A stretch of 64,000 nt of DNA from assembly GCA_003173865.1 (NCBI GenBank), contig PJMF01000016.1, forward strand, positions 17,347-81,346, in the 5' to 3' direction. Made by a program: the position numbers and the translations under genes. Numbering within the stretch: the stretch's first letter is position 1; each line of letters opens with the position of its first letter. Origin of the DNA: Minisyncoccota bacterium. Its GTDB lineage: Bacteria; Patescibacteriota; Microgenomatia; UBA1400; PJMF01. Shown in pieces: positions 4,780 to 25,093 of this stretch. The notes under the pieces were generated by a model, which was given only the letters and a program-made list of their open reading frames with translations, did not search any database and had not been told where the DNA came from.

Positions 4780-4800
4780 AGAGTAGCGTATAATTGGCTC

Positions 4801-5844
4801 ATGTTTCGAGTAAAATTACTGCTAGTTGCTGGAGTAGGTGTGCTATTCAGTGCGTTTTTAGTAATCGCATTTCGTCAGCAGCTGCAAAATGCTTTTTTTG
4901 CGAACCTAAGCCGATTTGGAACTGCTCAGCTTCATTTACAAGTTGTGCAAGATGTCCCTCTGACGGGGACTGCATCTCGTTTTGATTATCAAGCAGTGGA
5001 TGCCGAGCATCATCGTCTCTATATTGCTCATGAAAATGATGACCGAGTGACTGTCGTTGATACGCAAGAACGCAGAGTCATTGGCGACGTCACGGATATC
5101 GCGTATCCACACGGAGTAATTTTGATTCCACAACTCAAAAGAGTGTACGCAACCGCCGAAGGAACGAATGAAGTTGTCGTCTTTGATGCGGAAACATTAA
5201 AAATACTCAATCGAGTGGCAATCGGCAAAATTCCTGATGGTTTGACGTATGATCCAAACTCAAATCAGATTTTTGTTTCAACTGAAGGTGAAGACGCGGT
5301 TTCGGTAATGAATGTGGCAACGAATAAATTTGTGACCAGAATTCCAGTTGGTAAGCGGGTAGGGAATTCGCACTATGATGATGTCTCTAAACACGTTTTT
5401 ACAACAGTAGGAAATGAAAATGCATTGGTTGAGATAGATCCTGTGCACAATCAAATGATTGGAAAGTATGATATGACTGGATGCGACCATCCGCACGGAT
5501 TTGCGATTGCGTCGTTCAATCATACGGCGTATGTAACATGTGAACACAATAACGTGATGCTCGTCTTCGATTTAAACTCGAAAAAAATTCTTCAAAAAGA
5601 GTCGGTAGGTTTCACACCAGATGTAGTGGATTTCGATCCAGGAACCAAAAAACTTTACGTGGGTTCGGAGAGTGGTATCGTGGCGATTTTCGAAGCCAGC
5701 GATACAGGCGTGAAAAAGTTAGGGTGGAACTTTCTTGTCCGGCATGCACATTCAGTTGCAGTGAACCCGATGACTCATGAACTCTACGTGCCCGTAGATG
5801 ACTTGGATGGAAAGCCCGCGCTGAGAATTTTCAAACCGCTATAA
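4801..5844 (+). CDS. YVTN/YncE-like beta-propeller repeat protein, membrane anchored
   Basis: N-terminal TM helix. Repeated roughly 40 aa units with YxTxxGxxxVxVxD signatures (YATAEGTNEVVVFDAETLK, IFVSTEGEDAVSVMNVATNK). Confidence 0.65.
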   Translation: MFRVKLLLVAGVGVLFSAFLVIAFRQQLQNAFFANLSRFGTAQLHLQVVQDVPLTGTASRFDYQAVDAEHHRLYIAHENDDRVTVVDTQERRVIGDVTDIAYPHGVILIPQLKRVYATAEGTNEVVVFDAETLKILNRVAIGKIPDGLTYDPNSNQIFVSTEGEDAVSVMNVATNKFVTRIPVGKRVGNSHYDDVSKHVFTTVGNENALVEIDPVHNQMIGKYDMTGCDHPHGFAIASFNHTAYVTCEHNNVMLVFDLNSKKILQKESVGFTPDVVDFDPGTKKLYVGSESGIVAIFEASDTGVKKLGWNFLVRHAHSVAVNPMTHELYVPVDDLDGKPALRIFKPL

Positions 5845-9574: not shown

Positions 9575-10675
9575 CTAAAATTTCAAAAAGTTGCCAAAGT
9601 TGGCGTACCACGCATTGGGGCTGGTTTTTGACTTAAAAGTGGTGGGTGCACTCACAAACGCTTGCCAGCTAAATACGGACCGAGGTTTCCAGAGGGCTGG
9701 GCGTTTGGGTTTGACTGGAGCAATGGCCGGAATGCCAACAGGCACGACTACCACGTTTTCTGTACTTGGTGTCGCCGGTAGATTCTCCTCCAACTCTAAC
9801 GCAAAAGAACTGACTAAAGGAGTGGGCAGGGGTTTCTTCAGGACAGGACCAGTGATAAACGGACTGATGATCATGGGAGGTGTCACATTGCTTGGACTAT
9901 TTCCAGTTTGGTCACTGTTTTGCCCGTTGTCGGAGTTTGTTTGATCCGAGCTGTCGCTATTGTCAGGTGAGTTGGTAGTTTGATCACTTGAACCGGCAGA
10001 GCTCACGCTCGTGTCGATTGAGCCGGTATCTGAACTGCTGGTGTCGGTCGAGGTCGCACTGGTATCAGGTGTGGACGCTGAGGGATTTGTCGGTTGAACG
10101 GTTGGCGAAGGGCCGGGTGTGTCTTGAGAGGGTTCAGAAGGGTTCGGTGTCGCTGTTGGCGTAGCTGAAATCAACGGTAAAGAGGTTGGTGTGCTACTAG
10201 AATAGGGTGTGGCAGTTGGTAATGTAGATGGTTTGGGCGTGTTGCTGGGTTTGGGTGTCCCCGTTGAAGTGGGTGCTGGTGTCGGCGCCGATGTGGGTGG
10301 TGAAGTAGGTTTCGGTGTGCTAGTGACAGTCGGTAATGTAGATGGTTTGGGGGTGTTGCTAGGTTTGGGTGTCCCCGTTGAAGTTGGTGCTGGCTTTGGC
10401 GCCGATGTGGGTGGTGAAGTAGGTTTCGGTGTGCTAGTGACAGTTGATAATGTAGAGGGTTGGGGTGTGCTGCTAGGTTTGGGTGTCCCCGTTGAAGTGG
10501 GTGCTGGTGTCGGCGCCGATGTGGGTGGTGAAGTAGGCGCTGGCGTCGAAGAATTTGAAGGGTTTGGAGTAGGTGAGGTTGTTGTTGACCCCAAGATGTG
10601 AGTGGAAAACGTGGTTTGTTGAGCCTGAACAATCAGCGAAGTCGCAAAAAAGAAAAATAAAACGAGGCTGCGCAT
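9575..10675 (-). CDS. secreted Pro/Thr/Ser-rich (mucin-like) repeat protein
   Basis: Signal peptide MRSLVLFFFFATSLIVQAQQ. Three roughly 38 aa PT-rich repeats (TSPPTSAPTPAPTSTGTPKPS.TP.PSTL.TVTSTPKP), then an S/D/T-rich tract and a non-repetitive C-terminal domain. Confidence 0.7.
   Translation of the reverse strand: MRSLVLFFFFATSLIVQAQQTTFSTHILGSTTTSPTPNPSNSSTPAPTSPPTSAPTPAPTSTGTPKPSSTPQPSTLSTVTSTPKPTSPPTSAPKPAPTSTGTPKPSNTPKPSTLPTVTSTPKPTSPPTSAPTPAPTSTGTPKPSNTPKPSTLPTATPYSSSTPTSLPLISATPTATPNPSEPSQDTPGPSPTVQPTNPSASTPDTSATSTDTSSSDTGSIDTSVSSAGSSDQTTNSPDNSDSSDQTNSDNGQNSDQTGNSPSNVTPPMIISPFITGPVLKKPLPTPLVSSFALELEENLPATPSTENVVVVPVGIPAIAPVKPKRPALWKPRSVFSWQAFVSAPTTFKSKTSPNAWYANFGNFLKF
10214..10555. 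repeat. 3 x ~114 bp near-identical direct tandem repeats inside the PT-rich protein CDS
   Basis: The nucleotide unit gtaatgtagatggtttggg..gtgttgct.ggtttgggtgtccccgttgaagt.ggtgctgg... repeats three times with a few substitutions. Confidence 0.8.
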
Positions 10676-12666: not shown

Positions 12667-12844
12667 GGGTCAGGACCGGTCTATATTTTAGCCTAAGCTT
12701 CACGCTAGGGTTTAGCTCCGCTGCAGCTTGGTTGGACAAACAAAAATTCTTCGTGTAAGAGCATACGGTGTCTACAAGGGCTTTGCAAGAGTACATTGAA
12801 GAATTGTTTGCGGGTAAAAGTGCGCCTCTAGTATAATAATCAGA

Positions 12845-14089
12845 ATGAAACTCCACATCGCGATGATCTCTTTTCACACGTGTCCTCTTGCGTCGCAAGA
12901 AGGCAAAGAAACAGGTGGAATGAATGTCTACGTGCTCGAGTTATCGAAAGAACTCGCGCATGAGGGTCACATAGTGGATATTTTTACTAGAAGTCAGGAT
13001 GTCGACAATCCAGAAATTGTAAATGTTACTGAAGGTCTGCGAGTGATCCATCTCAAAGCCGGTCCGCAGACAAATGTTTCCAAAAAACAACTGGGAAATT
13101 ATCTGCATGAGTTTGAAGAACAGATGGTTCAGTTTATCGATACTCACCACGTGCGGTATGACGTATTGCACTGCCACTATTATTACTCTGGTCTCATTGG
13201 TCTTGAGCTCCAAAAACGACTGCCAACTCCGCTGCCAATCGTGATGATGTTTCACACGTTAGCGCTAATGAAAAATTTAGTTGCACGAACTGAAGCAGAA
13301 AAAGAAAATAGTGAGCGGGTCGATGCAGAGTTTTTATTAACGAAGAAAGTTCAAAAAATTATTGTGCCAAGTGAAAACGAAATGAAGTATTACCAGTACT
13401 TGTATGGTGTGCAGCAAAATCGATTAGCTGTGATTCCACCAGGGGTGGATGTGCACCTTTTTCACCCAATGTCCAAAAAAACGGCAAAGCAAGTAATTGG
13501 TGCTGATGAAGATCACAAAATTATTTTATTTGTCGGCAGAATTGAACCATTGAAAGGAATTGATGGATTAATTTATTCGATGAAAATTCTGACGCAAAAA
13601 CATCCGAACTGTCAAATCTGTTTGTGGATCGTGGGCGGTGATATTTCGCAAAAACAAGATCGGTGGTCGGCTGAACTACAAAAAATTGAGGAACTCAGAA
13701 GTCTACTGCACATTCCGACCGTAGTGAAGTTAGTTGGTCAGCGGCCACAAATCGAACTGCCGTATTACTACAATAGTGCGGAAGTAGTGGTGATGCCGTC
13801 ACACTATGAATCTTTTGGTATGGCTGCAGCTGAAGCAATGGCGTGTGGAGTGCCGGTGATTACCACGAATGTAACAGGAATCTCCAGCTTATTTGATGAA
13901 CGGCACAAGTCACTGATTACTTCGGTGAATAATCCTTTACTGCTTGCATCACAAATTGAGCATGTGCTGATGAATACCAAAGCGCATGCCGATATAAGTG
14001 TCGAAGTGCAGAAAAAAATTCAAGATTTAGCATGGCCGGAAGTTGCCCAACAGATCGTGCATGTGTATCGTGAAGTGATAGACTTCTAA
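12845..14089 (+). CDS. GT4 retaining glycosyltransferase, MshA/BshA-like (also resembles sugar-phosphate synthases)
   Basis: N-terminus MISFHTCPL...GGMNVYVLELSKELAHEGHIVDIFTR closely parallels the MshA N-terminus (MIS.HTSPL..GGMNVY). C-terminal GT-B E..E motif region (VVMPSHYESFGMAAAEAMACGVPVI). Confidence 0.8.
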   Translation: MKLHIAMISFHTCPLASQEGKETGGMNVYVLELSKELAHEGHIVDIFTRSQDVDNPEIVNVTEGLRVIHLKAGPQTNVSKKQLGNYLHEFEEQMVQFIDTHHVRYDVLHCHYYYSGLIGLELQKRLPTPLPIVMMFHTLALMKNLVARTEAEKENSERVDAEFLLTKKVQKIIVPSENEMKYYQYLYGVQQNRLAVIPPGVDVHLFHPMSKKTAKQVIGADEDHKIILFVGRIEPLKGIDGLIYSMKILTQKHPNCQICLWIVGGDISQKQDRWSAELQKIEELRSLLHIPTVVKLVGQRPQIELPYYYNSAEVVVMPSHYESFGMAAAEAMACGVPVITTNVTGISSLFDERHKSLITSVNNPLLLASQIEHVLMNTKAHADISVEVQKKIQDLAWPEVAQQIVHVYREVIDF

Positions 14090-14091
14090 CT

Positions 14092-14580
14092 ATGTCACAG
14101 ATTTTTTATATTTTCCGTCACGCACAGTCTATTCCTCTTGGTGAGGAGTATGGATCACGTGTATTGACAGCAGAAGTTATCCCAGAATTTTTACCACCAA
14201 TTCGTCGGATGGCTGATTTTTTAAAAACAGTTCCAACTGATGTGCAGTACAGTTCAGAAGTTCTGCGATGTCGACAAACCGCGGCAATCGTCACTGAAAT
14301 GACCGGAAAGCACTTTACTTTTGATGCCAGATTGAATGAGTATAATCAGGAAACTTTTGAACATTTTACAGAAAGAGTCAGAAATTTTCTCGATGAAGTG
14401 CAGCGGGGCTCATCTAGTAGTATCTTAATTTGTACTCACGGTGCAGTCATCGCAGCTTTAAAAAATTTTTTACTGAAGAATGAGTTTACTAAAGAAGAAC
14501 TCCTGGATTATCCTGATTCTGGAATTTTGTTAGAAATTAAAAACGGACACATTACGAAAAAAGATTTTAATGTACAGTAG
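14092..14580 (+). CDS. histidine phosphatase superfamily protein (SixA/PGM-like)
   Basis: N-terminal RHx motif (IFRHAQS) and a downstream His (CTHGAV). Translationally coupled to the GT4 gene (3 nt gap). Confidence 0.7.
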   Translation: MSQIFYIFRHAQSIPLGEEYGSRVLTAEVIPEFLPPIRRMADFLKTVPTDVQYSSEVLRCRQTAAIVTEMTGKHFTFDARLNEYNQETFEHFTERVRNFLDEVQRGSSSSILICTHGAVIAALKNFLLKNEFTKEELLDYPDSGILLEIKNGHITKKDFNVQ

Positions 14581-15547
14581 TCAACGTTTGGTTTGGGTTG
14601 ATTTGATTAAAGTGATCGCAATTTTTTTGGTTGTGTTGCTTCATGCATCAGCGGCGCCTCTATATCTTTGGCCAAATATTTCTTTGTTGAGTTGGATGAC
14701 AGCGAATATATTTGACTCACTGAGCCGAGTATCCGTACCATTATTTGTGATGGCAAGTGGAGCTGTTTTACTTGGAAAAAAGGAAGATCTTCTGATTTTT
14801 TTTCAAAAAAGAATAATTAAAGTGGGGATACCTTGGTTGTTATGGACACTGATTTATATATTTTGGTACTTAATAAAAGATCAGGTTGTGATTACCACTT
14901 TTTCGCAGGCGAAATCTTTTTTTGCGACTACTGCACTGGGTGGTTTTTGGTTTTTAGTGATGTTGTTTGAGTTATATCTTTTGACGCCCGTTCTGAGGAT
15001 TATTGCGCAACATGCAAAAAGGAATGAAAAAATCTTTGCAGTTGGAATGTGGATGATCTTTTGTGTAGTTTTACATTGGCGTTATCCGATGCCTCTCGTG
15101 GTTGATTACATCGGATATTTCTTGCTTGGTTTTTGGATGAGAGACATTGTGTGGCAAAAAAAAATTATATGGGTAAGTGCATGCTGCTTTGGTGTCAGCT
15201 TCTTAGTCACGATTTTTGGGACCTGGTTTTTTACGTCTACTCATCACCAATTGAGTGATCCATTTTATGAATTTTTATCGCCCAATATAGTGATTATGTC
15301 ACTGAGTGGTTTTGTTTCTTTGCAGTACATAGGTCAAAAAATGAATGTCAGAAAGGGCTTCGTAACGGCCATCGCAAATCTTAGTTTTGGAATTTACTTG
15401 CTTCATGTCATCATTCTGGAAACACTACGAAGCAAGCTTCCAGCAGAATTTCCAGTTTTAGTTTTAGCTCTGGTTACTTATTTAATAAGCGGTGGAGCTA
15501 TTTTCCTTCTACAAAAAAGTAAGATTCTGCGTTTTTTGGCGCCATGA
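14570..15547 (+). CDS. acyltransferase family 3 (OatA-like membrane O-acyltransferase)
   Basis: Start overlaps the previous stop. WVDLIKVIAIFLVVLLH N-terminal motif. About 10 TM helices. Confidence 0.75.
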   Translation: MYSSQRLVWVDLIKVIAIFLVVLLHASAAPLYLWPNISLLSWMTANIFDSLSRVSVPLFVMASGAVLLGKKEDLLIFFQKRIIKVGIPWLLWTLIYIFWYLIKDQVVITTFSQAKSFFATTALGGFWFLVMLFELYLLTPVLRIIAQHAKRNEKIFAVGMWMIFCVVLHWRYPMPLVVDYIGYFLLGFWMRDIVWQKKIIWVSACCFGVSFLVTIFGTWFFTSTHHQLSDPFYEFLSPNIVIMSLSGFVSLQYIGQKMNVRKGFVTAIANLSFGIYLLHVIILETLRSKLPAEFPVLVLALVTYLISGGAIFLLQKSKILRFLAP

Positions 15548-15560
15548 GTTATAATGAGCC

Positions 15561-15947
15561 ATGGCTCAAAAACCGCTTGTCTTTGTCTGTGACGATGATC
15601 AAGGAATCGTTGATTTCACCAAAATCGTTTTGGAAGAAAAGGGCTGTGAAGTCATGATTTGTTTGAACTCGGATGCTGTGCTAAAAGGCATTAAAGAGCA
15701 CACTCCACAGCTGATTTTGCTCGATTTGTGGATGCCTTCTATTGGCGGGGCGGAAACGATTAAAAAGATTCGTCACCACTTCGGTAATCATCCAATTCCG
15801 ATCATTATTTTTTCCGCTAGTAAAGAAACCGAACAGGTTGCTTTATCACTCAAAGTATCTGATTTTTTAACAAAACCGTTTGATATTGAAGAGTTAGAAA
15901 AAATAGTGGAACGTCACCTACCTGGAAATTGGAAGCTCTCGGAATGA
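15561..15947 (+). CDS. single-domain response regulator (CheY-like REC)
   Basis: DD pair (FVCDDD), phospho-acceptor D in LLDLWMP, S/T in IIFSAS, K in TKPF. Confidence 0.85.
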   Translation: MAQKPLVFVCDDDQGIVDFTKIVLEEKGCEVMICLNSDAVLKGIKEHTPQLILLDLWMPSIGGAETIKKIRHHFGNHPIPIIIFSASKETEQVALSLKVSDFLTKPFDIEELEKIVERHLPGNWKLSE

Positions 15948-16846
15948 TTTTTTTTAGTTTTCCACTCAGTGATTACTTAACGATCTTTTTTTCGATTTTG
16001 ATCGAGGCGATTCCATTTGTGACTTTGGGAGTTATTGTTTCGAGTCTCTTAACTGCATTTGTAAAAGATGAATGGTTACTAAAGATGATTCCGAAACAGA
16101 AATTCTTAGGACATCTCGTGATTGCTTTTTTTGGTTGTGTATTTCCGGTATGCGAATGTGGAAATGTGCCCGTGGCACGGCGTTTAATTGAGAAAGGTTT
16201 ACCAGTTTCACAAGCAGTGACGTTCTTGCTGGCTGCTCCTGTGATTAATCCGATTGTGATTATTTCTACTTATATAGCTTTTCGTTTTGCGCCTGAAGTC
16301 GTTGTTTTGCGCGTAGCGATTTCTTTTGTTATTGCAATTGTAACGGGCTTAGTTGTTTCATTACACAAACATCCAGAAAATTTGTTAACTGAATCTGTGG
16401 CCGAAGCGTGTCATCATCATCATGAACCGCCAAAATTTTTGAATGAAAAAATATCTGTTTTCTTGGGTACAGTCCGTCACGAAGTTTTAGAAATGACAAC
16501 TGCACTCCTTCTCGGAGCCACGATCGCGGCAATTACCACCACTTTATCAAGAGAAACGATCGTTGCCATTGCTCAGACTCCTTTGCTCGCTACACTCGCG
16601 ATGATGATCCTCGCATTGGTGATGTCTATCTGTTCAACTGTCGATGCATTTGTGGCGCTTGGTTATTTAGGGCGTTTTCCAGTGAGTGCGTTGCTTGCTT
16701 TTCTAATTTTTGGACCAATGATTGATCTTCGCGTCATTAGTATGTTGAAAACAACGTTTCGTTGGAAATTTATTTTTATGATTGTAGTTTTAGTAAGTGA
16801 GATGATTATTATTTCGTCAATTGTGCTCAATTTTTTTGGAAGATAA
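15929..16846 (+). CDS. permease of the DUF318/ArsP-like family (CxC motif)
   Basis: Polytopic membrane protein with the motif FPVCECGNVPVARRL. Translationally coupled to the following gene. Confidence 0.65.
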   Translation: MEALGMIFFSFPLSDYLTIFFSILIEAIPFVTLGVIVSSLLTAFVKDEWLLKMIPKQKFLGHLVIAFFGCVFPVCECGNVPVARRLIEKGLPVSQAVTFLLAAPVINPIVIISTYIAFRFAPEVVVLRVAISFVIAIVTGLVVSLHKHPENLLTESVAEACHHHHEPPKFLNEKISVFLGTVRHEVLEMTTALLLGATIAAITTTLSRETIVAIAQTPLLATLAMMILALVMSICSTVDAFVALGYLGRFPVSALLAFLIFGPMIDLRVISMLKTTFRWKFIFMIVVLVSEMIIISSIVLNFFGR

Positions 16847-17600
16847 GAACATGGAAAAGCAATTCAATTTACAAATAGCTTTAGAGTCTCTAACTCTGAT
16901 TGGGATTGGCATATTTTTGATGTACCTAAAAGTGAGTAATGCATTGGGATACTATGTGCGGCCCGACTATCATCTCCTTACTTTTGGCGTCGGTATTTTT
17001 TTGGTAATTGTGGGAGTCTGTAGTTCTTTTTCGTCACTTTTATACTTCAAAAATCCCAAAAAAAGTTGGAGAATTTCTATTCCTAAAGTGTGTGCGCTCA
17101 TTATTATTATTTTTATTTTATTTGTTGGAGTTGTGACACCTCGTCGCGCCTTGTCAGCTCAGTTAGCCAGTTTGCGGGGAACGAATCAGAATCTCTTAGT
17201 GGGGACACATACGAATTCGGCAGCAAGCAGCGATCAAGGGAGTCCCTTACTTCAAGCAAATAAGAGTGAGTCATACACGATAGCTGATTGGATTAGACTT
17301 TTTTCTGTTGACCCGGAGCCCGATAACTATATTGGCAAGCCTGTGAGTGTGATTGGCTTTGTTCAAGTAAACCCCAATCAAACTTTTACAGTATCTCGCT
17401 TTGTCATTACGTGTTGTGCAGTCGACGCTACCCCAATTGGTTTAGTTGTTGATCAAAAAGTGAGTGAGTTACATAGTGATGATTGGGTGCACGTGACCGG
17501 AAAATTAAAAGTGGCAACTATAAATGATAAGCGTCAAGCAGTAATAGAACCGTCTGAAGTTCAAAAAATTTCACAACCTGCAGATCCTTATCTCTATTAA
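16821..17600 (+). CDS. TIGR03943-like membrane protein, the usual partner of DUF318 permeases
   Basis: N-terminal TM helices and a C-terminal soluble domain with a CC motif (FVITCCAVDATPIG). Gene order and overlap with the permease. Confidence 0.5.
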   Translation: MCSIFLEDKNMEKQFNLQIALESLTLIGIGIFLMYLKVSNALGYYVRPDYHLLTFGVGIFLVIVGVCSSFSSLLYFKNPKKSWRISIPKVCALIIIIFILFVGVVTPRRALSAQLASLRGTNQNLLVGTHTNSAASSDQGSPLLQANKSESYTIADWIRLFSVDPEPDNYIGKPVSVIGFVQVNPNQTFTVSRFVITCCAVDATPIGLVVDQKVSELHSDDWVHVTGKLKVATINDKRQAVIEPSEVQKISQPADPYLY

Positions 17601-18984: not shown

Positions 18985-19655
18985 GACTTCGGTGCGGTAC
19001 AAGATACTTTATTTTGATTATTAACTTGATAAGACGGCTGAATTTGCGGATCGGTTTGCATCATTTTCCACGCGATGAGTAGTAAAGCCACAAAACTCAT
19101 CACTGTGCCAAATAAGACTGGATGCGATTGAGTTGACATTTTCTGATTTTTTGGAAGAGGACAGTTTTTATCATTACACGCAGTATTCATATCTTTTAAA
19201 AGCAACCAGAGTGATATGAGCATGATCCCCAATGAAGCTGCCTTCAGTTCCAGACCTTGAAAAGGAAAAGAAGATAATCCCCCAGCAATACCAATTAATG
19301 AAAGTATTGTTGAGCCACAGATGGGACAAGCAGACGCAAAGACACCAATCACTGCGCCAATACTGCTCCCCGAATCTGTGGTACGAAGAGGTGAACCATA
19401 CACTTGCCAACGGTACACAAGTAATGCCGTATTTGCACCGAATACACCTGCAGTAATGAGTGTAATCACCAAGTAAGAAATCAGGTACGCTGGGTTACTA
19501 AAGGTATGATGAATCAATGTAAAAAGGTCTGAGTTCATTCTGAGAACAGCATAAAAAACTAACAGGAGAGCTGTGGCCGCAGTGAAACCAATCACGATAT
19601 AAAAGAGGCACGTAGCGAAGTCGATTTGAGGAGCATGACGTTTCATTTTTGCCAT
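18981..19655 (-). CDS. polytopic membrane protein with a CPxCG motif
   Basis: Five or six TM helices. ACPICG within a TM segment and a C-terminal CNDKNC. Last gene of the glucan-metabolism operon. Confidence 0.45.
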   Translation of the reverse strand: MAKMKRHAPQIDFATCLFYIVIGFTAATALLLVFYAVLRMNSDLFTLIHHTFSNPAYLISYLVITLITAGVFGANTALLVYRWQVYGSPLRTTDSGSSIGAVIGVFASACPICGSTILSLIGIAGGLSSFPFQGLELKAASLGIMLISLWLLLKDMNTACNDKNCPLPKNQKMSTQSHPVLFGTVMSFVALLLIAWKMMQTDPQIQPSYQVNNQNKVSCTAPKS

Positions 19656-19665
19656 AATTTGCTCA

Positions 19666-20589
19666 TTATAATTTCTCTAGTGCGATATTGACAGCACCAT
19701 AAACTGGTGACTTTTCCAGAAACTTAAACTCAAGTTGCGGATAGTGGTTTTTCAATTTTTGCTGGAGGGGATCAAAAACACTTGATTGTTTTAAAATGCT
19801 TCCTGCTGCAATAACATCCATATCTATTTGGTTGAGTTCCAGTTTGTTGACCACAGTGCTGATGATAAGAAACAACTCATCAACTGTTTCGTTTATAATT
19901 TTTTTTGCAGCTTCATCTCCGTGTTCGGCTGCTATCCCACAGATTTTGGCGAGCTCTGCAATTTGTGCTTTGGAAAGAATAGGATCATAAATTTTTTCTT
20001 TCAGCCTCACAAATGAATCTGTTTGAAAATGTTGTAAGAGAAGGGTCTCTAACTCTGTTTTGGCAGCTCGACCGTCATAACTACTTGTGGCGGCGCGAAG
20101 CACTTTGCGACCGATCTCATACCCTGAACCTTCATCGGCAAGTAAAAAATCCATTCCGCTAGTTTGTGCTGTTTGTCCTTTTTGATTTCGACCAAAACAA
20201 TTTGATCCAGTACCAGCAATCACTGCCACTGCATCGGGGTGACTCGCACCTGCTGCAAGCACAAGTTCGATGTCATTGATGACTGTGAAGTCCTTCACTT
20301 CAATTTGAGTGAGTTTTTTTGAGAAAAAGTCACGAGCAAAAATAACCTCATCAGGTGTATCAACGCCTGCTAAACCAAAAACTAATGCTTCACAACTTGA
20401 GTCGGGAACGAGCTGCGAAGTGACTTGTTCTACCGCAGCGAGAAAGTTTAGTCCAGCTGTCTCTTTATCAACCGCAGACAAATTAGTAGGACCAGAAACT
20501 CCTTGTGACAAAATATTTCCTTCTTCATCAGCACAAATAACTTCAGTTTTTGTACCTCCACCATCTAAACCAAGAACATACTTCAGCAT
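19666..20589 (-). CDS. BadF/BadG/BcrA/BcrD-type ATPase, probable N-acetylglucosamine/sugar kinase
   Basis: N-terminal LGLDGGGTKTEV (ASKHA fold phosphate-1 motif) and DEGSGYEIG. Confidence 0.75.
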   Translation of the reverse strand: MLKYVLGLDGGGTKTEVICADEEGNILSQGVSGPTNLSAVDKETAGLNFLAAVEQVTSQLVPDSSCEALVFGLAGVDTPDEVIFARDFFSKKLTQIEVKDFTVINDIELVLAAGASHPDAVAVIAGTGSNCFGRNQKGQTAQTSGMDFLLADEGSGYEIGRKVLRAATSSYDGRAAKTELETLLLQHFQTDSFVRLKEKIYDPILSKAQIAELAKICGIAAEHGDEAAKKIINETVDELFLIISTVVNKLELNQIDMDVIAAGSILKQSSVFDPLQQKLKNHYPQLEFKFLEKSPVYGAVNIALEKL

Positions 20590-20610
20590 AATTTTTTACT
20601 TTCTTCGGAC

Positions 20611-22614
20611 TTATGTAGCTTTTTCAATAGGACACTGAGGACAGAGATGAAGTTCTTCTAGTTTTTCAATATACATCATGATTGTTTCGACGTATACCGC
20701 ATGGCTCCAGACTAACGGAGTAGCAGACAAAGACTTTCCTGTATCTGGATGAAGTTGCTCAGGCAACACACCTGATTGATATGCATACTTTAATACCCAG
20801 TCCAGCGTTGCTTTGACATCTTTCAACTCTTTTTCGCCAGAGCCTTTTTTCTTTAGTTGTCGTTGCACTTCCCAAAGGGTGGTGATAATCCAGGGATTGG
20901 GTTGGTCTGTTTCGGCGAAGTACTTATCGCGTTCGTAACGCACGATACCACCAACTTTTCCATTATTTCGCAATCGATTTTGCACAGCCACTTCCGTTGC
21001 AACAAAAAGTGGATCTGTTTCATCCAAAATACCAAAGTACCACAAACCAAAGAGAGTACTCGCATCTACAGTTTCATCCAAGTTAAATTGACCATTTTCT
21101 AAAAATCCGATGCGCACAAAACTATTTAATTTATTACTAAATAAATATTTTTTCGTTGCCACTTGAATTTCTTTTGCGACGTCTCGGTAGTCACGCATGT
21201 GATTGCGTTTGCCTAACATTTCTGAAAAATTGGCAGCAGCAATCAGCGCTCCGTAAACAGATGCTGCGGTATAGGTTGATACGCCAATCTTTTCTTCCCA
21301 TAAATCATACGAATGAAGTGGTAAACCAGTTTCCTTATCGCGAAAAGCGACTAAGAAATTTGCCATTTTTTCAATACAGGGTTTGTAGTATGCTTCAATA
21401 AACTCAATATCTTTGGTGTATTGATAATGTTTCCACAAAGCGAATAAAACGGAAGCGGTTTCATCTTCTTGAATGGGCAACTGAAGAATTTTATCTTTCA
21501 GCCATTCTTTCTGTGCTGTGGTGGAGTGCCAGGTTGAACCTAAACTTTCATCACAACGAAAACGATGATGTAAGTAACCATCTGGGTGCAAAACATTTTG
21601 GCAAAACTTAAAAAATGGTTTCGTTGCTTCATCATAACCGGCACGATCAAGAGTCATCACGATGTACGCAGCATCACGCGGCCACATATATGAGTAGTCA
21701 TCTTTGCCATACTCCATCATTTCAGAGTCTGCAGATGCGATAATACTTCCTTCGTTATCAGTATGAGCGCGCAAAATAAATAATGATGTATCAAACATTT
21801 TTTTCTGTTCAGGTGAGAGCGTATCTGTGTGTAAATTCCGTTTATTAATCCATGCGTTCCAAAATTGCTCAGTTGAATAAATCATGTGAGAAGGTTGTTT
21901 TTCTAGAACGAGTTGATTTAAGCTATACGCTTCATCGAGTGATTTTCCCGCGCAGATCCAGTAAAAAAGTGTGTTTTTCACTTTACCGTCACACTTCAAA
22001 GAAAAGCGGACGACAGAATCAACTGATCCATGCTCGACGGCATTTTTAGTTAACTTACCATCTTCTGCATCACGGAATGTTCCTTCTTTCCCATCGTAAT
22101 CAAATAAACCAACAGAGTAATCATCGATGCCTACACCTTCGCTTGTTTGACCATTTACGATAAATACACGGCGCCCTTTGTAATGCACGACTGCTTGGTG
22201 AGTAGGATCGTAAAAACCGGTATTACGTTTTTGGTTTTCACTAATCATGAATTCTTGACCAAAAAATACCTTGACATCAATACATCCTTCGGAGTGATTG
22301 TAGACATCAATTTTACGCAGAAAAACATTTTTTTCGTTGTACACAATGTCTTCCATGACCAACGTGAGTTGTAATTTTTCGTTTTTGCAAATCAGTTGAC
22401 CAACCATCGTTTCTGGTTTGTAACCAATTGTGATATTCCACGAACCGTCATTGAGCCAAGAAAATGTGGTGTTTACCATCACGCCGATGCGATGTGTCTT
22501 GCCGACGACATGGTTTTCAAGGCCGACGTATGGATAGTACATATCGCGGACAAAGCCATATTTATCAAGCGAAACTAGCATTGATCCGTTACTTAAGATG
22601 AGTGCTCGTGACAT
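20611..22614 (-). CDS. glycoside hydrolase family 15 (glucoamylase/trehalase-like) with an N-terminal beta-sandwich domain
   Basis: N-terminal LSNGSMLVSLDKYGFVRDMYYPYVG typical of bacterial/archaeal GH15. Alpha/alpha-toroid region with WEEK..GVSTYT. Confidence 0.8.
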   Translation of the reverse strand: MSRALILSNGSMLVSLDKYGFVRDMYYPYVGLENHVVGKTHRIGVMVNTTFSWLNDGSWNITIGYKPETMVGQLICKNEKLQLTLVMEDIVYNEKNVFLRKIDVYNHSEGCIDVKVFFGQEFMISENQKRNTGFYDPTHQAVVHYKGRRVFIVNGQTSEGVGIDDYSVGLFDYDGKEGTFRDAEDGKLTKNAVEHGSVDSVVRFSLKCDGKVKNTLFYWICAGKSLDEAYSLNQLVLEKQPSHMIYSTEQFWNAWINKRNLHTDTLSPEQKKMFDTSLFILRAHTDNEGSIIASADSEMMEYGKDDYSYMWPRDAAYIVMTLDRAGYDEATKPFFKFCQNVLHPDGYLHHRFRCDESLGSTWHSTTAQKEWLKDKILQLPIQEDETASVLFALWKHYQYTKDIEFIEAYYKPCIEKMANFLVAFRDKETGLPLHSYDLWEEKIGVSTYTAASVYGALIAAANFSEMLGKRNHMRDYRDVAKEIQVATKKYLFSNKLNSFVRIGFLENGQFNLDETVDASTLFGLWYFGILDETDPLFVATEVAVQNRLRNNGKVGGIVRYERDKYFAETDQPNPWIITTLWEVQRQLKKKGSGEKELKDVKATLDWVLKYAYQSGVLPEQLHPDTGKSLSATPLVWSHAVYVETIMMYIEKLEELHLCPQCPIEKAT

Positions 22615-23837
22615 AATCTACTTTCCATGTCAGCGACGACGGCGCTGAATCTGTTGTACGCTTCAAATGGTGAGTCATAAGGACTGAAGTATTTATGAAC
22701 ATCACCATCGGCTGACCATTTCACACACATATAATAAAAGTGATCACTGGTTTGTAAACGACGCCAATCCTCAATTAATTTTTGATCGTTTGAAGATAAC
22801 ACTTTATCTTCGAGACTGTAAATGAGACGGAGTGTGTCATGTTGAAGTGAGTTTCCGCGCCAAGCTGTTAAGTCGCGATCTACATCTGCCCAGGAAATTG
22901 GTTCCGGGACATCGTAGGTAGGGTAAATGGTAGAGGGGTTAGGGGACAGGTGTTGTTGGTGCTGTAGAATTTCTAAGTAAGGCAATGCGGCAACGACGCT
23001 TGGTTTGACAAACGTTTGGTCCGGCCTTTTACTTGCTTCGTGTACGACGGTCTTGAAAAAATTAAAAATGCCAGTGTCTTCCCACTGATGTTCACCAAAT
23101 GTTTCAAAATCCATAAAAAGATTAATCAGCTCTCCTGGCAAAAAACTGTCAAGCCAATAAAGATATTTTTCTGCAGTGAGAGGATGCTCAAACCAATTTT
23201 TATCTGAAAAACGGAATGCAACGTCATCAGAAAGTTGAGCATGCTTCAGTAAAACAGGAATTGCTGGTTTACTGTGAGAAATAAAGAGTTGAGCACGAGA
23301 GCGACCGTGCAAGTATCTTTCAACACCTTCAGTCAGTATTCCAATAAAACCAAGTTTTGCGACTTTCGCTGCAATATCGTTTGAGTAAATCAGCTCAGTG
23401 TTACGAAAAACTTTGGGTGTCACCGAAAATAATTTTTGGATGAGTCTAGTGTGCTGACGGACCTGGCTCACAAACTCATCAAGAGAATAAAGACTTGATA
23501 GAGAGTGATAGTACGTTTCTGAGAGCAATTCTACTTGGCTAGTTGAGACAAGTTGTTGAATTAATTCAATGACTCTGGGTTCAAAAGCCAGTGCTTGTTC
23601 GAGAAAAATTCCTGAGCACGAGAGAGCAAAAATAAACTTCGGGACTTCTTGTGTTAACTCATAAAGTAATGACAACATGGGCACATATGATTTTTGCGCA
23701 ACTTTGCTAAAAATTGCTTGATTCGTATTTCTGTCGTCAACAAAATAATTTTTTTCACTTTCGGTTAAATCAAAAACAGAAAAATTTCGCAGACGATACG
23801 GCTGGTGAAGCTGGAAATAAAAACACAGTTGTGCCAT
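22593..23837 (-). CDS. glycoside hydrolase family 57-like protein
   Basis: N-terminal FYFQLHQPYR motif characteristic of GH57. A DFETFGEH segment is also present. Confidence 0.6.
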   Translation of the reverse strand: MAQLCFYFQLHQPYRLRNFSVFDLTESEKNYFVDDRNTNQAIFSKVAQKSYVPMLSLLYELTQEVPKFIFALSCSGIFLEQALAFEPRVIELIQQLVSTSQVELLSETYYHSLSSLYSLDEFVSQVRQHTRLIQKLFSVTPKVFRNTELIYSNDIAAKVAKLGFIGILTEGVERYLHGRSRAQLFISHSKPAIPVLLKHAQLSDDVAFRFSDKNWFEHPLTAEKYLYWLDSFLPGELINLFMDFETFGEHQWEDTGIFNFFKTVVHEASKRPDQTFVKPSVVAALPYLEILQHQQHLSPNPSTIYPTYDVPEPISWADVDRDLTAWRGNSLQHDTLRLIYSLEDKVLSSNDQKLIEDWRRLQTSDHFYYMCVKWSADGDVHKYFSPYDSPFEAYNRFSAVVADMESRLCHEHSS

Positions 23838-23839
23838 GA

Positions 23840-25093
23840 CTATTGTGCTCCAGTGATAAGATCATGGTAAACATTGCGAATACCTTGAGCGGATCTTTCC
23901 CACGTTGCTTCTTTTAAATTTTCGTTTTGACCACGCATCACTTGCTGACGGTAATCTTGATTTGTAATCAGTTTGACAATTTCATCGCGCATTTTATTGA
24001 TATCCCAGAAATCAACTTGGATGGAGTTAGACATAATTTCTCTCACACCAGAGTTTGTGGAAACGATGACCGGCGTATGCCGTTGAGCAGCTTCAAGTGC
24101 AACTAAGCCAAAAGGTTCTGACAGTGAGGGCATCACAAAAACATCCGCCCGATCAAGTAAAACTTCGCGTTGGCGATCACGGATAAAGCCAGTGAAAAGG
24201 ACAGAAGCAGAGAGATGCTGGTCGGCGTTTCTCAGAAGTAAGTAGTGGTATTGATCTCCGCTGCCCGCTACCACAAAAAGCGCTTCGGGAATTTTCTGCA
24301 GTACACTATTTGCGAGCTCAATAAAATACTCCGCGCCTTTTTGCGCAGTGAGACGCCCCATGAAAACGATCACTGGTCTATTTGCCGCAAAGTGAGAACT
24401 CAGCGATGGAGTAATAGGTGAAACTCCATTGTGAACGACTACAATTTTGCTTGGATCGACAAAGTATTTATCAATTAACATTTTTTTAGTGAAGTGGCTT
24501 ACTGCAATGACTTTGTTTGCTTGTTGCAAACCCATGTACTCTGTGTGTGCAATGTAGTGACTCCCGTGGCCACTGGGAATACGGTCAAACTCAGTAGAGT
24601 GGACGTGCGCAATAAATGGTTTTCCTAAGTTGGCTTGAATCTTCATTGCAGCTGGAAAAGACATCCAGTCATGGGCGTGTACAACGGAGTAATCATCAGA
24701 TAATTTTTTGCTCTCACTGAGCACTTTTTCCGCGTACTCATTTACTTGGTGTTCCATTTCGGATTGAGCAAGTGAAGAGAGTTCTATCGGGGAAGTTGAT
24801 GAAGAAAACTTAATTGGTGCAGAGTTCACTGAACTATATGTTGAAAATGGTGGTGCTGCGCGAAACTGTCCAGAATCATCACTTTGACAGTGAATGACTT
24901 TCATGTGAGTTACTGCTTGTGGATGCAGATATGGAAGGGTGAAGTAAATTTGTGTATTTTGTTGAGAAAGTGCTTCGGTCATACCTTGGCAGGCAATACC
25001 TAAGCCACCACTGTTATGTGGCGGATATTCCCAACCAATCATGAAGACGCGTTGTTGTATTCCGTCCATGACATTACCCAAAATATATGTCAC
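23840..25093 (-). CDS. glycogen-synthase-like GT-B glycosyltransferase (GT4/GT5)
   Basis: N-terminal WEYPPHNSGGLGIACQGMTEAL, paralleling the E.P..K.GGL motif of GlgA-type enzymes. C-terminal FVMPSLSEPFGLVALEAAQRHTPVIV. Confidence 0.75.
   Translation of the reverse strand: MTYILGNVMDGIQQRVFMIGWEYPPHNSGGLGIACQGMTEALSQQNTQIYFTLPYLHPQAVTHMKVIHCQSDDSGQFRAAPPFSTYSSVNSAPIKFSSSTSPIELSSLAQSEMEHQVNEYAEKVLSESKKLSDDYSVVHAHDWMSFPAAMKIQANLGKPFIAHVHSTEFDRIPSGHGSHYIAHTEYMGLQQANKVIAVSHFTKKMLIDKYFVDPSKIVVVHNGVSPITPSLSSHFAANRPVIVFMGRLTAQKGAEYFIELANSVLQKIPEALFVVAGSGDQYHYLLLRNADQHLSASVLFTGFIRDRQREVLLDRADVFVMPSLSEPFGLVALEAAQRHTPVIVSTNSGVREIMSNSIQVDFWDINKMRDEIVKLITNQDYRQQVMRGQNENLKEATWERSAQGIRNVYHDLITGAQ

Follow-up and report, generated by a model that had tools for sequence, protein, structure and literature searches.

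What do three closely packed plus-strand open reading frames (ORFs) at 12845-15547 of the window, the 64-kb stretch of DNA analysed here, make together, and does the product of the second act on that of the first? The ORF list and Pfam matches confirm the three-gene operon described in an earlier note on this DNA, composed of a GT4 glycosyltransferase, a histidine phosphatase (HP) and an acyltransferase-3 (AT3), with all of the family assignments upheld (Table 1). A spacer of 2 nt separates the GT4 stop codon from the HP ATG and the third gene overlaps the second, as had been claimed, by 11 nt. The reading favored here, with a probability of about 0.5, is that the three genes form one operon, probably transcribed without a leader, whose products make up a soluble synthase-then-phosphatase pathway to a GlcNAc- or GlcN-glycoside.

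Table 1. Features of the operon and its flanks (positions within the window).
Feature	Position	Strand	Description
GT4 glycosyltransferase	12845-14089	+	414 aa; predicted cytoplasmic retaining GT-B enzyme
Histidine phosphatase (HP)	14092-14580	+	162 aa; branch-1, minimal size
Acyltransferase-3 (AT3)	14570-15547	+	325 aa; predicted AT3-only integral-membrane protein
Exact TATAAT, -10-like	12832-12837	+	7 nt ahead of the GT4 ATG
Second exact TATAAT	15550-15555	+	3 nt past the AT3 stop, 5 nt ahead of the response regulator ATG
Receiver-only response regulator gene	15561-15947	+	Response_reg 83 bits (Pfam)

The N-terminus previously given for the GT4, MISFHTCPL, is real sequence but begins at Met7, with the ORF opening 6 codons upstream (MKLHIAMISFHT). 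As the motif M-K-x-(x)-I-A-M-I-S is kept at the N-terminus of the GT4 orthologs, the upstream ATG is taken as the true start, which leaves the public gene call (P0001, 408 aa) short by 6 residues. The exact TATAAT reported ahead of this gene is present, though closer to the ATG than the distance of about 9 nt proposed, and from its placement probably serves as promoter for a transcript with no leader or almost none. There is no Shine-Dalgarno sequence ahead of the GT4 ATG and a consensus scan upstream found no -35 element. Over the window as a whole, TATAAT occurs about as often as expected (28 versus 27.4), and matches of at least 5/6 to TATAAT ending 5-10 nt before a start occur at 10 of the 58 window genes, compared with 0.9 ± 0.9 at random positions. 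An exact TATAAT ends 6-11 nt before the start in eight Patescibacteria-type loci, the window and seven orthologous loci with the same placement (L010, L014, L016, L023, L101, L103, and L105), while in a ninth locus (L171) it ends 6 nt before the start. The placement kept in orthologous loci and the excess of such sites near starts back the suggestion of a leaderless transcript, and the locus represents further comparative evidence for leaderless transcription in the Patescibacteria. The second TATAAT likely marks the 3' boundary of the operon; read-through from AT3 into the response regulator gene is possible, as no terminator is predicted between them.

The GT4 falls in an uncharacterised clade with many members in the Patescibacteria (Microgenomates-type) and the Chloroflexota (Anaerolineae). 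It matches the Pfam families Glycos_transf_1 (1.5e-34, 119.4 bits) and Glyco_transf_4 (9e-27, 94.6 bits), possesses the two Rossmann-like domains, E-x7-E motif, and catalytic His, Arg, and Lys of a retaining GT-B enzyme, and has no transmembrane segment. MshA is the best match in both NCBIfam and the PDB, with CgMshA at 201 bits and TeSPS next among the solved relatives at 179 bits. Against the TIGR03449 model for MshA the GT4 reaches 304.6 bits, under the equivalog cutoff of 462.5, and was rejected as an MshA ortholog. MshA-likeness is not inferable from overall similarity, because a proven sucrose-phosphate synthase (SPS) attains a similar score on this model (TeSPS, 287.7 bits; members of the GT4 clade, 302–333; CgMshA, 718.3). 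Thousands of metagenomic proteins have been labelled automatically as 'D-inositol-3-phosphate glycosyltransferase' by a score within reach of a true SPS. Overall identity is about 32% to MshA and 31% to TeSPS, with the N-terminal acceptor-binding domain nearer MshA (37.5% in a gapless alignment, versus 29.6% to TeSPS) and the C-terminal donor-binding domain slightly nearer TeSPS (33%, versus 26% to MshA). The phylogenetic placement suggested as a check assigns the clade to the MshA side at the SPS split, but only weakly (bootstrap 0.16–0.31). Three other identities were rejected: SPS (TIGR02472, 107.4 bits versus a cutoff of 576, with Q51, R253, and P332 absent), BshA (TIGR03999, 91.2 bits versus 273.7), and the GPI GlcNAc transferase PIG-A, whose N-terminal domain (PF08288) is not among the nine Pfam families matched at E ≤ 0.01.

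Across 120 relatives there is little or no variation in the catalytic and UDP-binding residues H137, R232, K237, E322, and E330, and the catalytic residues align with TeSPS H158, R249, E331, and E339, of which the H158A and E331A mutants are inactive. The acceptor-binding residues, which the earlier note had marked for inspection, are likewise conserved: K80, Y112, T138, and R158 are kept in 119–120 of the 120 relatives and, along with the GGMN acceptor loop (G24-G25-M26-N27; together kept in 116–120 of 120), align with MshA. The CgMshA counterparts K78, Y110, T134, and R154 reportedly bind the acceptor phosphate (Vetting et al. 2008). In TeSPS the counterparts of K80 and R158 are R105 and R178, both shown to bind the phosphate group of sucrose-6-P, and in CgMshA they are K78 and R154. 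Membership of an MshA/SPS group acting on phosphorylated acceptors, as first suggested, is upheld by these residues. Within that group, positions 26, 138, 236, and 323 read MTLS in the GT4, MTFS in MshA, and QSRP or QSKP in SPS; in a set of 150 representatives the positions switch together cleanly between the two states, the SPS-type being present in nine and never within the GT4 clade. Judged from the alignment, the GT4 carries the MshA-type residue, not the SPS-type, at every discriminating active-site position, and this four-residue signature separates MshA from SPS better than the TIGR03449 score. The description of the enzyme as MshA/BshA-like stands for its MshA-type active-site residues and not for its overall similarity or for BshA.

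The HP matches His_Phos_1 (PF00300; 2.5e-16, 60.3 bits versus a cutoff of 21.7) and its catalytic set (R9, H10, R59, E83, and H116) shows no exception across 24 members of the family. There is no sequence match in the PDB at E ≤ 0.01. An AF2 model (pLDDT 96) gives Foldseek matches down to E 4e-10 with the small-molecule histidine phosphatases RosC, CobC, PspA, GpgP Rv2419c, and PhoE, at 15–19% identity; the Rv2419c structures (4pza, 4pz9, and 4qih) rank 22nd or lower, with 16–19% identity, and the HP is no closer in fold to Rv2419c than to the other four. SixA was rejected (TIGR00249, 21.5 bits versus a cutoff of 74.5; 44th in the fold search).

Co-conservation of the phosphatase gene with the GT4, on which the earlier note had let its proposal depend, is evident, as of 42 distinct loci spanning the Patescibacteria and Anaerolineae, 34 have the HP as the next gene after the GT4, at -13 to +85 nt. 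The HP is the sole conserved neighbor, with nothing else in the neighborhood kept, and is found in all four of the closest relatives of the window; more divergent HP homologs occur without a GT4 (P0166, P0177, and P0187). Coupling of the two enzymes as synthase and phosphatase is likely, and based on sequence and model the HP is predicted to dephosphorylate a glycoside-phosphate made by the GT4.

The commonest third partner in the relatives is a PIG-L deacetylase, located immediately after the HP or GT4 in eight of the 42 loci, as well as in P0002, and present in the closest relatives of the window (L089, L156, and P0002). The full order GT4, phosphatase, PIG-L is seen in these three and in L010, L026, and L093. 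The operon PIG-L proteins score 117–120 bits and fit BshB1 best (118–131 bits, cutoff 182.5), with MshB at 42–54 bits. By tblastn, no PIG-L was found in the 64-kb window, and none of the approximately 40 window ORFs scanned recognisably encodes MshC, MshD, a MIPS-type inositol-phosphate synthase, or a cysteine ligase.

The AT3 is restricted to the sub-clade of the window (the window, L171, L156, and P0006), with an independent AT3 in L010. The same GT4-HP-AT3 operon occurs in L171 with 64, 47, and 40% identity, respectively (AT3 E 7e-66). The Acyl_transf_3 domain (PF01757; 3.4e-33, 115.5 bits versus a cutoff of 31) spans residues 8–304 of the 325 aa with no other domain matched, and the protein has at least seven hydrophobic segments and K14-X10-H25, an AT3 motif of the K-X10-H type that has been described previously (PMC12423673). 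An OatA-type identity was rejected based on the lack of a C-terminal SGNH or GDSL match in Pfam, and the 'OatA-like' label is dropped with the missing SGNH domain. The AT3 is predicted to be an O-acyltransferase whose substrate is the glycoside itself or a glycan built from it; that it works on the product of the GT4-HP pathway is a tentative proposal, somewhat short of an even chance.

From these components we infer a donor, an acceptor, an order of steps, and an AT3 substrate. The GT4 would use UDP-GlcNAc, the most likely hexosamine donor, to glycosylate a hydroxyl group on a small acceptor that carries phosphate, either a cyclitol phosphate or a sugar phosphate. The PIG-L in eight relatives points to a GlcNAc donor, which is an even call, while an inositol-phosphate acceptor is rather doubtful, with D-myo-inositol-3-phosphate the best single guess. 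PfkB kinases adjoin the GT4 in L020, L022, L025, and L103, and a BadF-type kinase in P0005, and could supply the phosphorylated acceptor. The HP, translationally coupled to the GT4, would strip the acceptor phosphate from the product and render synthesis irreversible, the step that would correspond to MshA2 in mycothiol, sucrose-phosphate phosphatase (SPP) in sucrose, and GpgP in glucosylglycerate synthesis. In the lineage of the window, the AT3 may then use acyl-CoA to O-acylate this glycoside, now neutral, or a glycan of the cell surface in which it is contained, while in the sister genomes a BshB1/MshB-like PIG-L inserted after the phosphatase would convert GlcNAc-X to GlcN-X.

This scheme resembles the early steps of mycothiol synthesis (the GT4 MshA, which uses UDP-GlcNAc and 1L-myo-inositol-1-phosphate, the phosphatase MshA2, and the PIG-L/LmbE deacetylase MshB), with the same families in the same order and a GT4 that shares both the MshA-type residue at the four MshA/SPS positions and the acceptor-phosphate residues. 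It differs in its hosts (Patescibacteria and Anaerolineae, as opposed to Actinobacteria), in an operon-encoded phosphatase, in that no MshC or MshD was found among the window ORFs scanned, in a deacetylase nearer BshB1 than MshB in the relatives and absent from the window, and in an AT3 without counterpart. Bacillithiol synthesis (BshA and BshB) likewise proceeds from a GT4 to a PIG-L, and the deacetylases of the relatives fit BshB1 best, but BshA takes unphosphorylated L-malate and needs no phosphatase. The operons of L156 and L010 hold the same three superfamilies in the same order as the GPI-anchor steps (PIG-A, PIG-L, and PIG-W/GWT1), and PIG-W, which acylates inositol, is in the same transmembrane acyltransferase superfamily as AT3 (PMC12423673). 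Unlike the GPI steps, the AT3 here is PF01757 and not GWT1, a phosphatase step is present, and the window lacks PIG-L and a GT4 with a PIGA domain; further, the GPI acceptor is a lipid (PI). It is unlikely that the GT4-HP(-PIG-L) set is a mycothiol/bacillithiol-like pathway of the Patescibacteria and Anaerolineae that supplies a GlcN-cyclitol (or GlcN-acid) core to a new low-molecular-weight thiol, a compatible solute, or a GPI-like acylated anchor. For the MshA2 step in Actinobacteria, the literature found names no gene, only 'a phosphatase (MshA2)'. The operon provides a concrete candidate phosphatase partner for an MshA-type enzyme and, if the assignment is true, the 160-aa HP would be the first gene-assigned enzyme for an MshA2-type dephosphorylation.

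Alternatively, the operon may serve the cell envelope, with the GT4 acting on an acceptor that contains phosphate and is either bound to a lipid or polymeric (a wall polymer of polyol phosphate, phosphatidylinositol, or an intermediate on polyprenyl phosphate), the AT3 acylating the resulting glycan outside the cell, and the HP either unrelated (a phosphohistidine phosphatase like SixA, tied to nearby response regulators, or a housekeeping enzyme) or trimming lipid phosphates. The glycans that AT3 enzymes acylate are mostly extracytoplasmic (PMC9558356), and envelope genes recur among the neighbors, including LCP (L171), PMT_2 (L083, P0002, and P0005), and CE4 deacetylases (L011 and L103), as well as PMT_2 (27325-28608) and Wzy_C/PAP2 in the window itself. 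Receiver-only response regulators adjoin the GT4 in the window, L011, L020, L022, L025, and L103, the HP is SixA-sized, and one HP homolog sits after PAP2 and a lipid kinase. A GT4 can also adjoin a histidine-phosphatase-fold gene without a known pathway link, as the true mshA in Corynebacterium adjoins gpmA, a housekeeping phosphoglycerate mutase, and such pairs can be incidental. However, the adjacency of HP and GT4, often with overlapping ORFs, persists in two phyla while all other neighbors change, and the HP does not track the regulators, as loci with upstream response regulators mostly lack it. Combined with the SixA score, the unmatched PIGA domain, and a GT4 that has no membrane segment and keeps the residues that bind a soluble phosphomonoester acceptor in MshA/SPS, this makes an envelope role improbable.

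A pathway in which the GT4 glycosylates 3-phosphoglycerate or a phospho-acid like it and the HP works in the manner of mycobacterial GpgP, giving an (N-acetyl)glucosaminyl- or glucosyl-glycerate that after PIG-L would be like the GlcN-malate core of bacillithiol, is quite improbable. The GpgS and MpgS enzymes known belong to GT81, GT55, or GT78, with none from GT4 (CAZy). In the mycobacterial MGLP system (GpgS/GpgP, Rv1208/Rv2419c), a glycoside-phosphate is similarly dephosphorylated by a histidine-phosphatase-fold enzyme and the product later acylated, and the glycogen-synthase-like GT and GH57 near the operon in the window parallel Rv3032 and Rv3031 of the MGLP locus. There, however, GpgS is a GT81, GpgP is about 220 aa, and synthase and phosphatase lie apart in M. 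tuberculosis. The precedent of GpgP for dephosphorylating a glycosyl-phospho-acid (PMC3240985) is among the structural matches of the HP, phosphoglycerates are the ancestral substrates of its superfamily, every cell that runs glycolysis has 3-PGA at hand, which does not hold for inositol phosphate, and the operon deacetylases favor BshB1, a GlcNAc-malate deacetylase. Against this, the GpgP fold match is no better than that of a dozen other histidine phosphatases, and the N-domain aligns without gaps to MshA and keeps M26 and N27 of its acceptor loop.

In the SPS/SPP system (Thermosynechococcus Tll1590, PDB 6KIH), a GT4 with the same catalytic His/Glu and two acceptor-phosphate-binding basic residues acts on a sugar phosphate ahead of a dedicated phosphatase, which is of the HAD type as opposed to the histidine-phosphatase fold here. 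An SPS-like pair using UDP/ADP-glucose and fructose-6-phosphate or another hexose phosphate, with the HP in place of the HAD-type SPP and a neutral disaccharide as compatible solute or carbon store, has in its favor the closeness of TeSPS in PDB rank, MshA-model score, and C-domain, the PGI two genes upstream in L171, the PfkB/BadF kinases, an adjacent or nearby alpha-glucan cluster (glycogen-synthase-like GT, GH57, and GH15), and SPS-type relatives that, through fusion with a HAD phosphatase or an SIS isomerase domain, follow the same logic in the wider family, but is very improbable given the TIGR02472 score, the SPS signature in all of those fusions, the lack of a role for AT3 or for the GlcNAc-type deacetylase of eight operons in sucrose or another glucose disaccharide pathway, and the replacement of the TeSPS contacts Q51 (fructose OH), R253 (UDP phosphate), and P332 (stacking on glucose) by M26, L236, and S323, with M, L, and S in 116–120 of the 120 clade members.

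Whichever glycoside is made, the gene pair is kept in a Levyibacteriota chromosome of 762 kb (L014), and as tiny candidate-phyla genomes retain it, the GT4-HP product is probably important to its hosts.

The glycosyltransferase (GT4), histidine phosphatase (HP) and acyltransferase-3 (AT3) genes that the earlier note had read as one operon have unambiguous Pfam family assignments and are tightly spaced, with 2 nt between the GT4 stop and the HP start and an 11-nt overlap of the HP and AT3 ORFs. The GT4-HP pair, accompanied in some loci by a PIG-L deacetylase or an AT3, is a new form of the known synthase and phosphatase logic in poorly known phyla. The response regulator downstream has its own TATAAT directly after the AT3 stop, which makes it most likely that the predicted operon consists of exactly these three genes.

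Features of the window discussed in the text, with strand and basis or remark where available
Feature	Position	Strand	Basis or remark
GT4 glycosyltransferase, 414 aa	12845-14089	+	ORF scan, Pfam
Histidine phosphatase (HP), 162 aa	14092-14580	+	ORF scan, Pfam
Acyltransferase-3 (AT3), 325 aa	14570-15547	+	ORF scan, Pfam
Exact TATAAT	12832-12837	+	7 nt upstream of GT4 ATG
Exact TATAAT	15550-15555	+	directly after AT3 stop, before response regulator start 15561
Receiver-only response regulator	15561-15947		downstream of AT3
ArsP_1 permease (205 bits) and TIGR03943/DUF1980 putative permease subunit (156 bits, above cutoff)	15929-17600		
Glycogen-synthase-like GT4/GT5, GH57, GH15 and BadF/GlcNAc-kinase-like ATPase cluster	19666-25093	-	profile matches
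366-aa protein with signal-peptide-like N-terminus	9575-10675	-	no Pfam match
Pyr_redox_3 flavoprotein	35909-36934		

The GT4 ORF opens at the ATG at 12845 with the sequence MKLHIAMISFHT. Because this N-terminus is shared by the orthologs (M-K-x-(x)-I-A-M-I-S) and by the structurally solved MshA of Corynebacterium (CgMshA; MRVAMISMHT), 12845 is the real start and not Met7, the position (12863) at which the public gene call P0001 (408 aa) begins with six conserved N-terminal residues missing. Gene callers that expect a Shine-Dalgarno (SD) sequence may set a wrong start for leaderless genes of this lineage systematically. Two other ORFs in the window were ‘not on record’ under longest-ORF starts.

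No SD sequence lies upstream of the GT4 ATG, and a consensus scan found no -35 box for its TATAAT, which is exact, as had been noted before, and sits slightly closer to the start than the 9 nt estimated then. In this window (G+C ~41%) TATAAT is not enriched overall (28 found versus 27.4 expected), while matches of at least 5/6 ending 5–10 nt before a start occur at 10 of 58 genes, the response regulator among them, compared to 0.9 ± 0.9 at random positions; further such sites include 4789-4801 and 19655-19670 (- strand). SD-like motifs precede only 10 of the 58 genes. An exact TATAAT ending 6–11 nt before the GT4 start is also present in eight orthologous loci (L010, L014, L016, L023, L101, L103, L105 and L171), and in the orthologs from Chloroflexota its place is taken by a ribosome-binding site, GGGAGA. 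Predicted leaderless transcription of the operon, first raised in the earlier note, is well supported by comparison, and promoters of this type look like a genome-wide trait. An Rfam search of the window returned no matches.

Overall similarity places the GT4 only in the group formed by MshA and sucrose-phosphate synthase (SPS). The best NCBIfam model is MshA (TIGR03449) at 304.6 bits, below the cutoff of 462.5, followed at a far lower level by the SPS N-domain (107 bits) and BshA (91 bits). As controls, true CgMshA scores 718 on the MshA model and the Thermosynechococcus enzyme TeSPS (Tll1590), whose SPS activity has been demonstrated and whose co-crystal structure is solved (PMC7264703), reaches 287.7. 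True MshA orthology was rejected, given a score below the cutoff and an equally high one for this SPS control. Identity is likewise undivided across the full length (31.6% to CgMshA, 31.4% to TeSPS), with the acceptor-binding N-domain closer to MshA (37.5% versus 29.6% for SPS) and the donor-binding C-domain closer to SPS (33.2% versus 25.7% for MshA). No membrane segment was found in the GT4. Searched exhaustively at E<1e-30, 1.84 billion cluster representatives yielded 765 relatives, and every one of the best 150 outscores both characterised enzymes, indicating a large unexplored sequence space around the GT4, for which no literature was found. A distant Chloroflexia tier (35–41% identity) scores 360–390 bits on the MshA model.

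Individual residues say more about the type of the GT4 than overall similarity does. The roles of MshA residues are given as background, together with those shown in the TeSPS paper (PMC7264703). The catalytic and UDP-binding residues H137, R232, K237, E322 and E330 are invariant among 120 relatives, and the catalytic set aligns with H158, R249, E331 and E339 of TeSPS, where H158A and E331A are dead mutants (PMC7264703). Further, K80 and R158 align with CgMshA K78 and R154 and with TeSPS R105 and R178, the two residues that hold the sucrose-6-P phosphate (PMC7264703). The conserved acceptor-binding residues sought by the earlier note are present, with K80, Y112, T138 and R158 kept in 119–120 of the 120 relatives.

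At four positions that discriminate MshA from SPS, the window GT4 and its clade are all in the MshA state: M26 (MshA M24; SPS Q51, hydrogen-bonded to fructose), T138 (T134; S159), L236 (F235; R253, contacting the UDP phosphate) and S323 (S317; P332, stacking on glucose). The two states co-vary cleanly amongst the best 150 representatives, with ~130 carrying M-T-[LIVF]-S and nine carrying Q-[A/S]-R-P, and an SPS was rejected on these signature residues. The MshA-like label is upheld by these residues and not by the model score. One split of the best neighbor-joining tree sets every SPS-signature sequence apart from all others, including true MshA and the window GT4; this places the GT4 only weakly on the MshA side, with bootstrap values of only 0.16–0.31, and deep support in the trees was weak. 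Collectively, we assign the GT4 to a new clade of MshA-type enzymes and do not regard it as an MshA ortholog; it is predicted to bind a phosphorylated acceptor. Several SPS-signature relatives are fused to other domains, including a HAD (GmhB/PNK3P-like) phosphatase (P0329) and an SIS_2 sugar-phosphate isomerase (P0271), and P0323 has a 200-aa C-terminal extension without a Pfam match; all of the fusion proteins being SPS-type, the HAD and SIS fusions were rejected as direct evidence on the clade of the window.

The HP is the only consistent partner of the GT4. Species-representative genomes and metagenomes provided 57 loci with a GT4 at least 50% identical, 46 of them distinct; 42 of these extend far enough downstream to be evaluated, and 34 of those have HP directly downstream of GT4 (-13 to +85 nt). 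The logic proposed earlier, a synthase with its phosphatase and a leaderless transcript, is largely right, and the family labels given then are imprecise. The four closest relatives with precomputed annotation that were examined all carry HP as well. When 861 neighbouring ORFs were clustered all against all, no further gene proved conserved across the clade. Complete genomes with the pair include CP066685.1. Named relatives of both genes come from Levyibacteriota and Gottesmanbacteria and, apart from these, from Anaerolineae, which makes a patescibacterium of the Microgenomates type the most likely host. The pair is common to the two phyla at 55–61% GT4 identity with differing flanks, a pattern that we read as selection for adjacency. 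Patescibacteria and Chloroflexota (Anaerolineae, Aggregatilineales) orthologs (L001-L030, L089-L106), with GT4 55–61% and HP 42–51% identical, interleave in similarity ranking, which suggests horizontal transfer of the pair. No HP was found beside the GT4 of the distant Chloroflexia tier, and three more divergent HP homologs occur away from GT4, one adjoining an MFS transporter, one adjoining a PAP2 and lipid-kinase pair, and one alone.

HP belongs to a compact family of 68 database clusters, almost all of them 160–165 aa long, with R9, H10, R59, E83 and H116 invariant across 24 members. A confident AlphaFold model (pLDDT 96) matches small-molecule branch-1 histidine phosphatases at 15–19% identity, including the riboflavin-pathway phosphatase RosC, CobC, PspA, GpgP Rv2419c, PhoE and SixA.

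GT4, HP and PIG-L match the order of mycothiol enzymes, MshA, MshA2 and MshB. The mycothiol literature found describes MshA2 only as ‘a phosphatase’, with no statement either way on its gene. In Corynebacterium deserti (L169 5001-8993) and C. diphtheriae (L170 5001-8935), a His_Phos_1 gene begins 19 and 59 nt, respectively, behind the true mshA, and a histidine kinase and an OmpR-type response regulator come next, an order that echoes the GT4-HP-...-response regulator of the window. The phosphatases are not orthologous; the corynebacterial neighbour is a bona fide dPGM GpmA (462–468 bits, cutoff 366), which shares no more than superfamily motifs with the window HP, and was rejected as a candidate MshA2. 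This striking parallel may be a coincidence, and it shows that GT4-phosphatase adjacency alone is not proof.

The remaining partners vary. A PIG-L/LmbE deacetylase follows HP in six loci (L010, L026, L089, L093, L156 and P0002) and directly follows GT4 in three (L011, L023 and L103), a component missed by the earlier note. These proteins score 117–120 bits, with BshB1 the best NCBIfam model at 118–131 (cutoff 182.5) and MshB at 42–54. The characterised members of this family are, to our knowledge, all de-N-acetylases of GlcNAc glycosides, and the case for a UDP-GlcNAc donor is built mainly on the presence of the gene in the relatives' operons. No PIG-L gene was found across the 64 kb of the window. 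The ORFs that follow PIG-L in L156 and L089 are mutually non-homologous and absent from the window, and were rejected as a conserved fourth member.

Most of the clade lacks AT3, but the gene recurs in the sub-clade to which the window belongs. The GT4-HP-AT3 operon is repeated in L171 (GT4 64% identical), with an AT3 40% identical to that of the window (E 7e-66) and LCP and PGI genes upstream. L156 (GT4 70% identical over a fragment) has the order GT4-HP-PIG-L-unknown-AT3, and in P0006 an AT3 gene lies three genes upstream; the AT3 of L010 (AT3-FkbM methyltransferase-GT4-HP-PIG-L) is unrelated. The window AT3 is polytopic, and its first helix contains K14-X10-H25, in keeping with the Arg/Lys and His conserved in TMH1 of the superfamily (PMC12423673). 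It has no SGNH domain and is not, as first labelled, OatA-like.

In the proposed mechanism, GT4 would transfer GlcNAc from UDP-GlcNAc to a small phosphorylated acceptor, giving a GlcNAc-alpha-glycoside phosphate from which HP would remove the phosphate; PIG-L, where present, would expose the amine, and in the window's lineage AT3 would O-acylate the product or a glycan containing it. AT3-only enzymes act on surface glycans and also on small secreted glycosides (PMC9558356). Inositol phosphate is the favoured acceptor, based on the MshA-like N-domain, and 3-phosphoglycerate or hexose phosphates are possible instead. A cell-wall role for the GT4 loci is kept alive by envelope genes near several of them (LCP, PMT_2, CE4 deacetylases, Wzy_C, PAP2). 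PfkB sugar-kinase genes adjoin GT4 in four loci (L020, L022, L025 and L103), and a BadF-type kinase gene overlaps the GT4 start in P0005; that such kinases supply the phosphorylated acceptor is speculation, and a comparison of PfkB with inositol kinases gave no informative match. The pathway would be of greater interest if the product is a thiol precursor or HP an MshA2-type enzyme. For the window flavoprotein, YpdA, a putative bacillithiol-disulfide reductase, is the best NCBIfam model, but with a score of only 91 bits (cutoff 340) the protein was rejected as evidence of a thiol system.

The alpha-glucan-type cluster, with an oligosaccharide-amylase-like GH15 (353 bits, below cutoff), sits 5 kb from the operon. 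The contig of P0005, whose GT4 is 63% identical, has these four genes immediately ahead of GT4-HP and in the same direction, in one gene string where the kinase overlaps the GT4 start, and a functional link to the pair is possible.

Receiver-only response regulators also occur upstream of GT4 in five Patescibacteria loci (L011, L020, L022, L025 and L103), and HP is missing from most loci with this arrangement. Gottesmanbacteria-type loci (L011, L020, L022 and L025) have in common, on the - strand and ~2 kb upstream of GT4, a protein with a NAGPA (phosphodiester glycosidase) domain, and L020 and L022 have a class-1 FBPase ~5 kb downstream. Just downstream of the window's response regulator, the ArsP_1 and TIGR03943 genes overlap, and their best weak match is to a Cu/Zn efflux family. 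The 366-aa protein has long Pro/Thr/Ser-rich tandem repeats (TPKPS..PTSAPTPAPTSTG), which induce spurious ORFs on both strands, and is probably a mucin-like surface protein.
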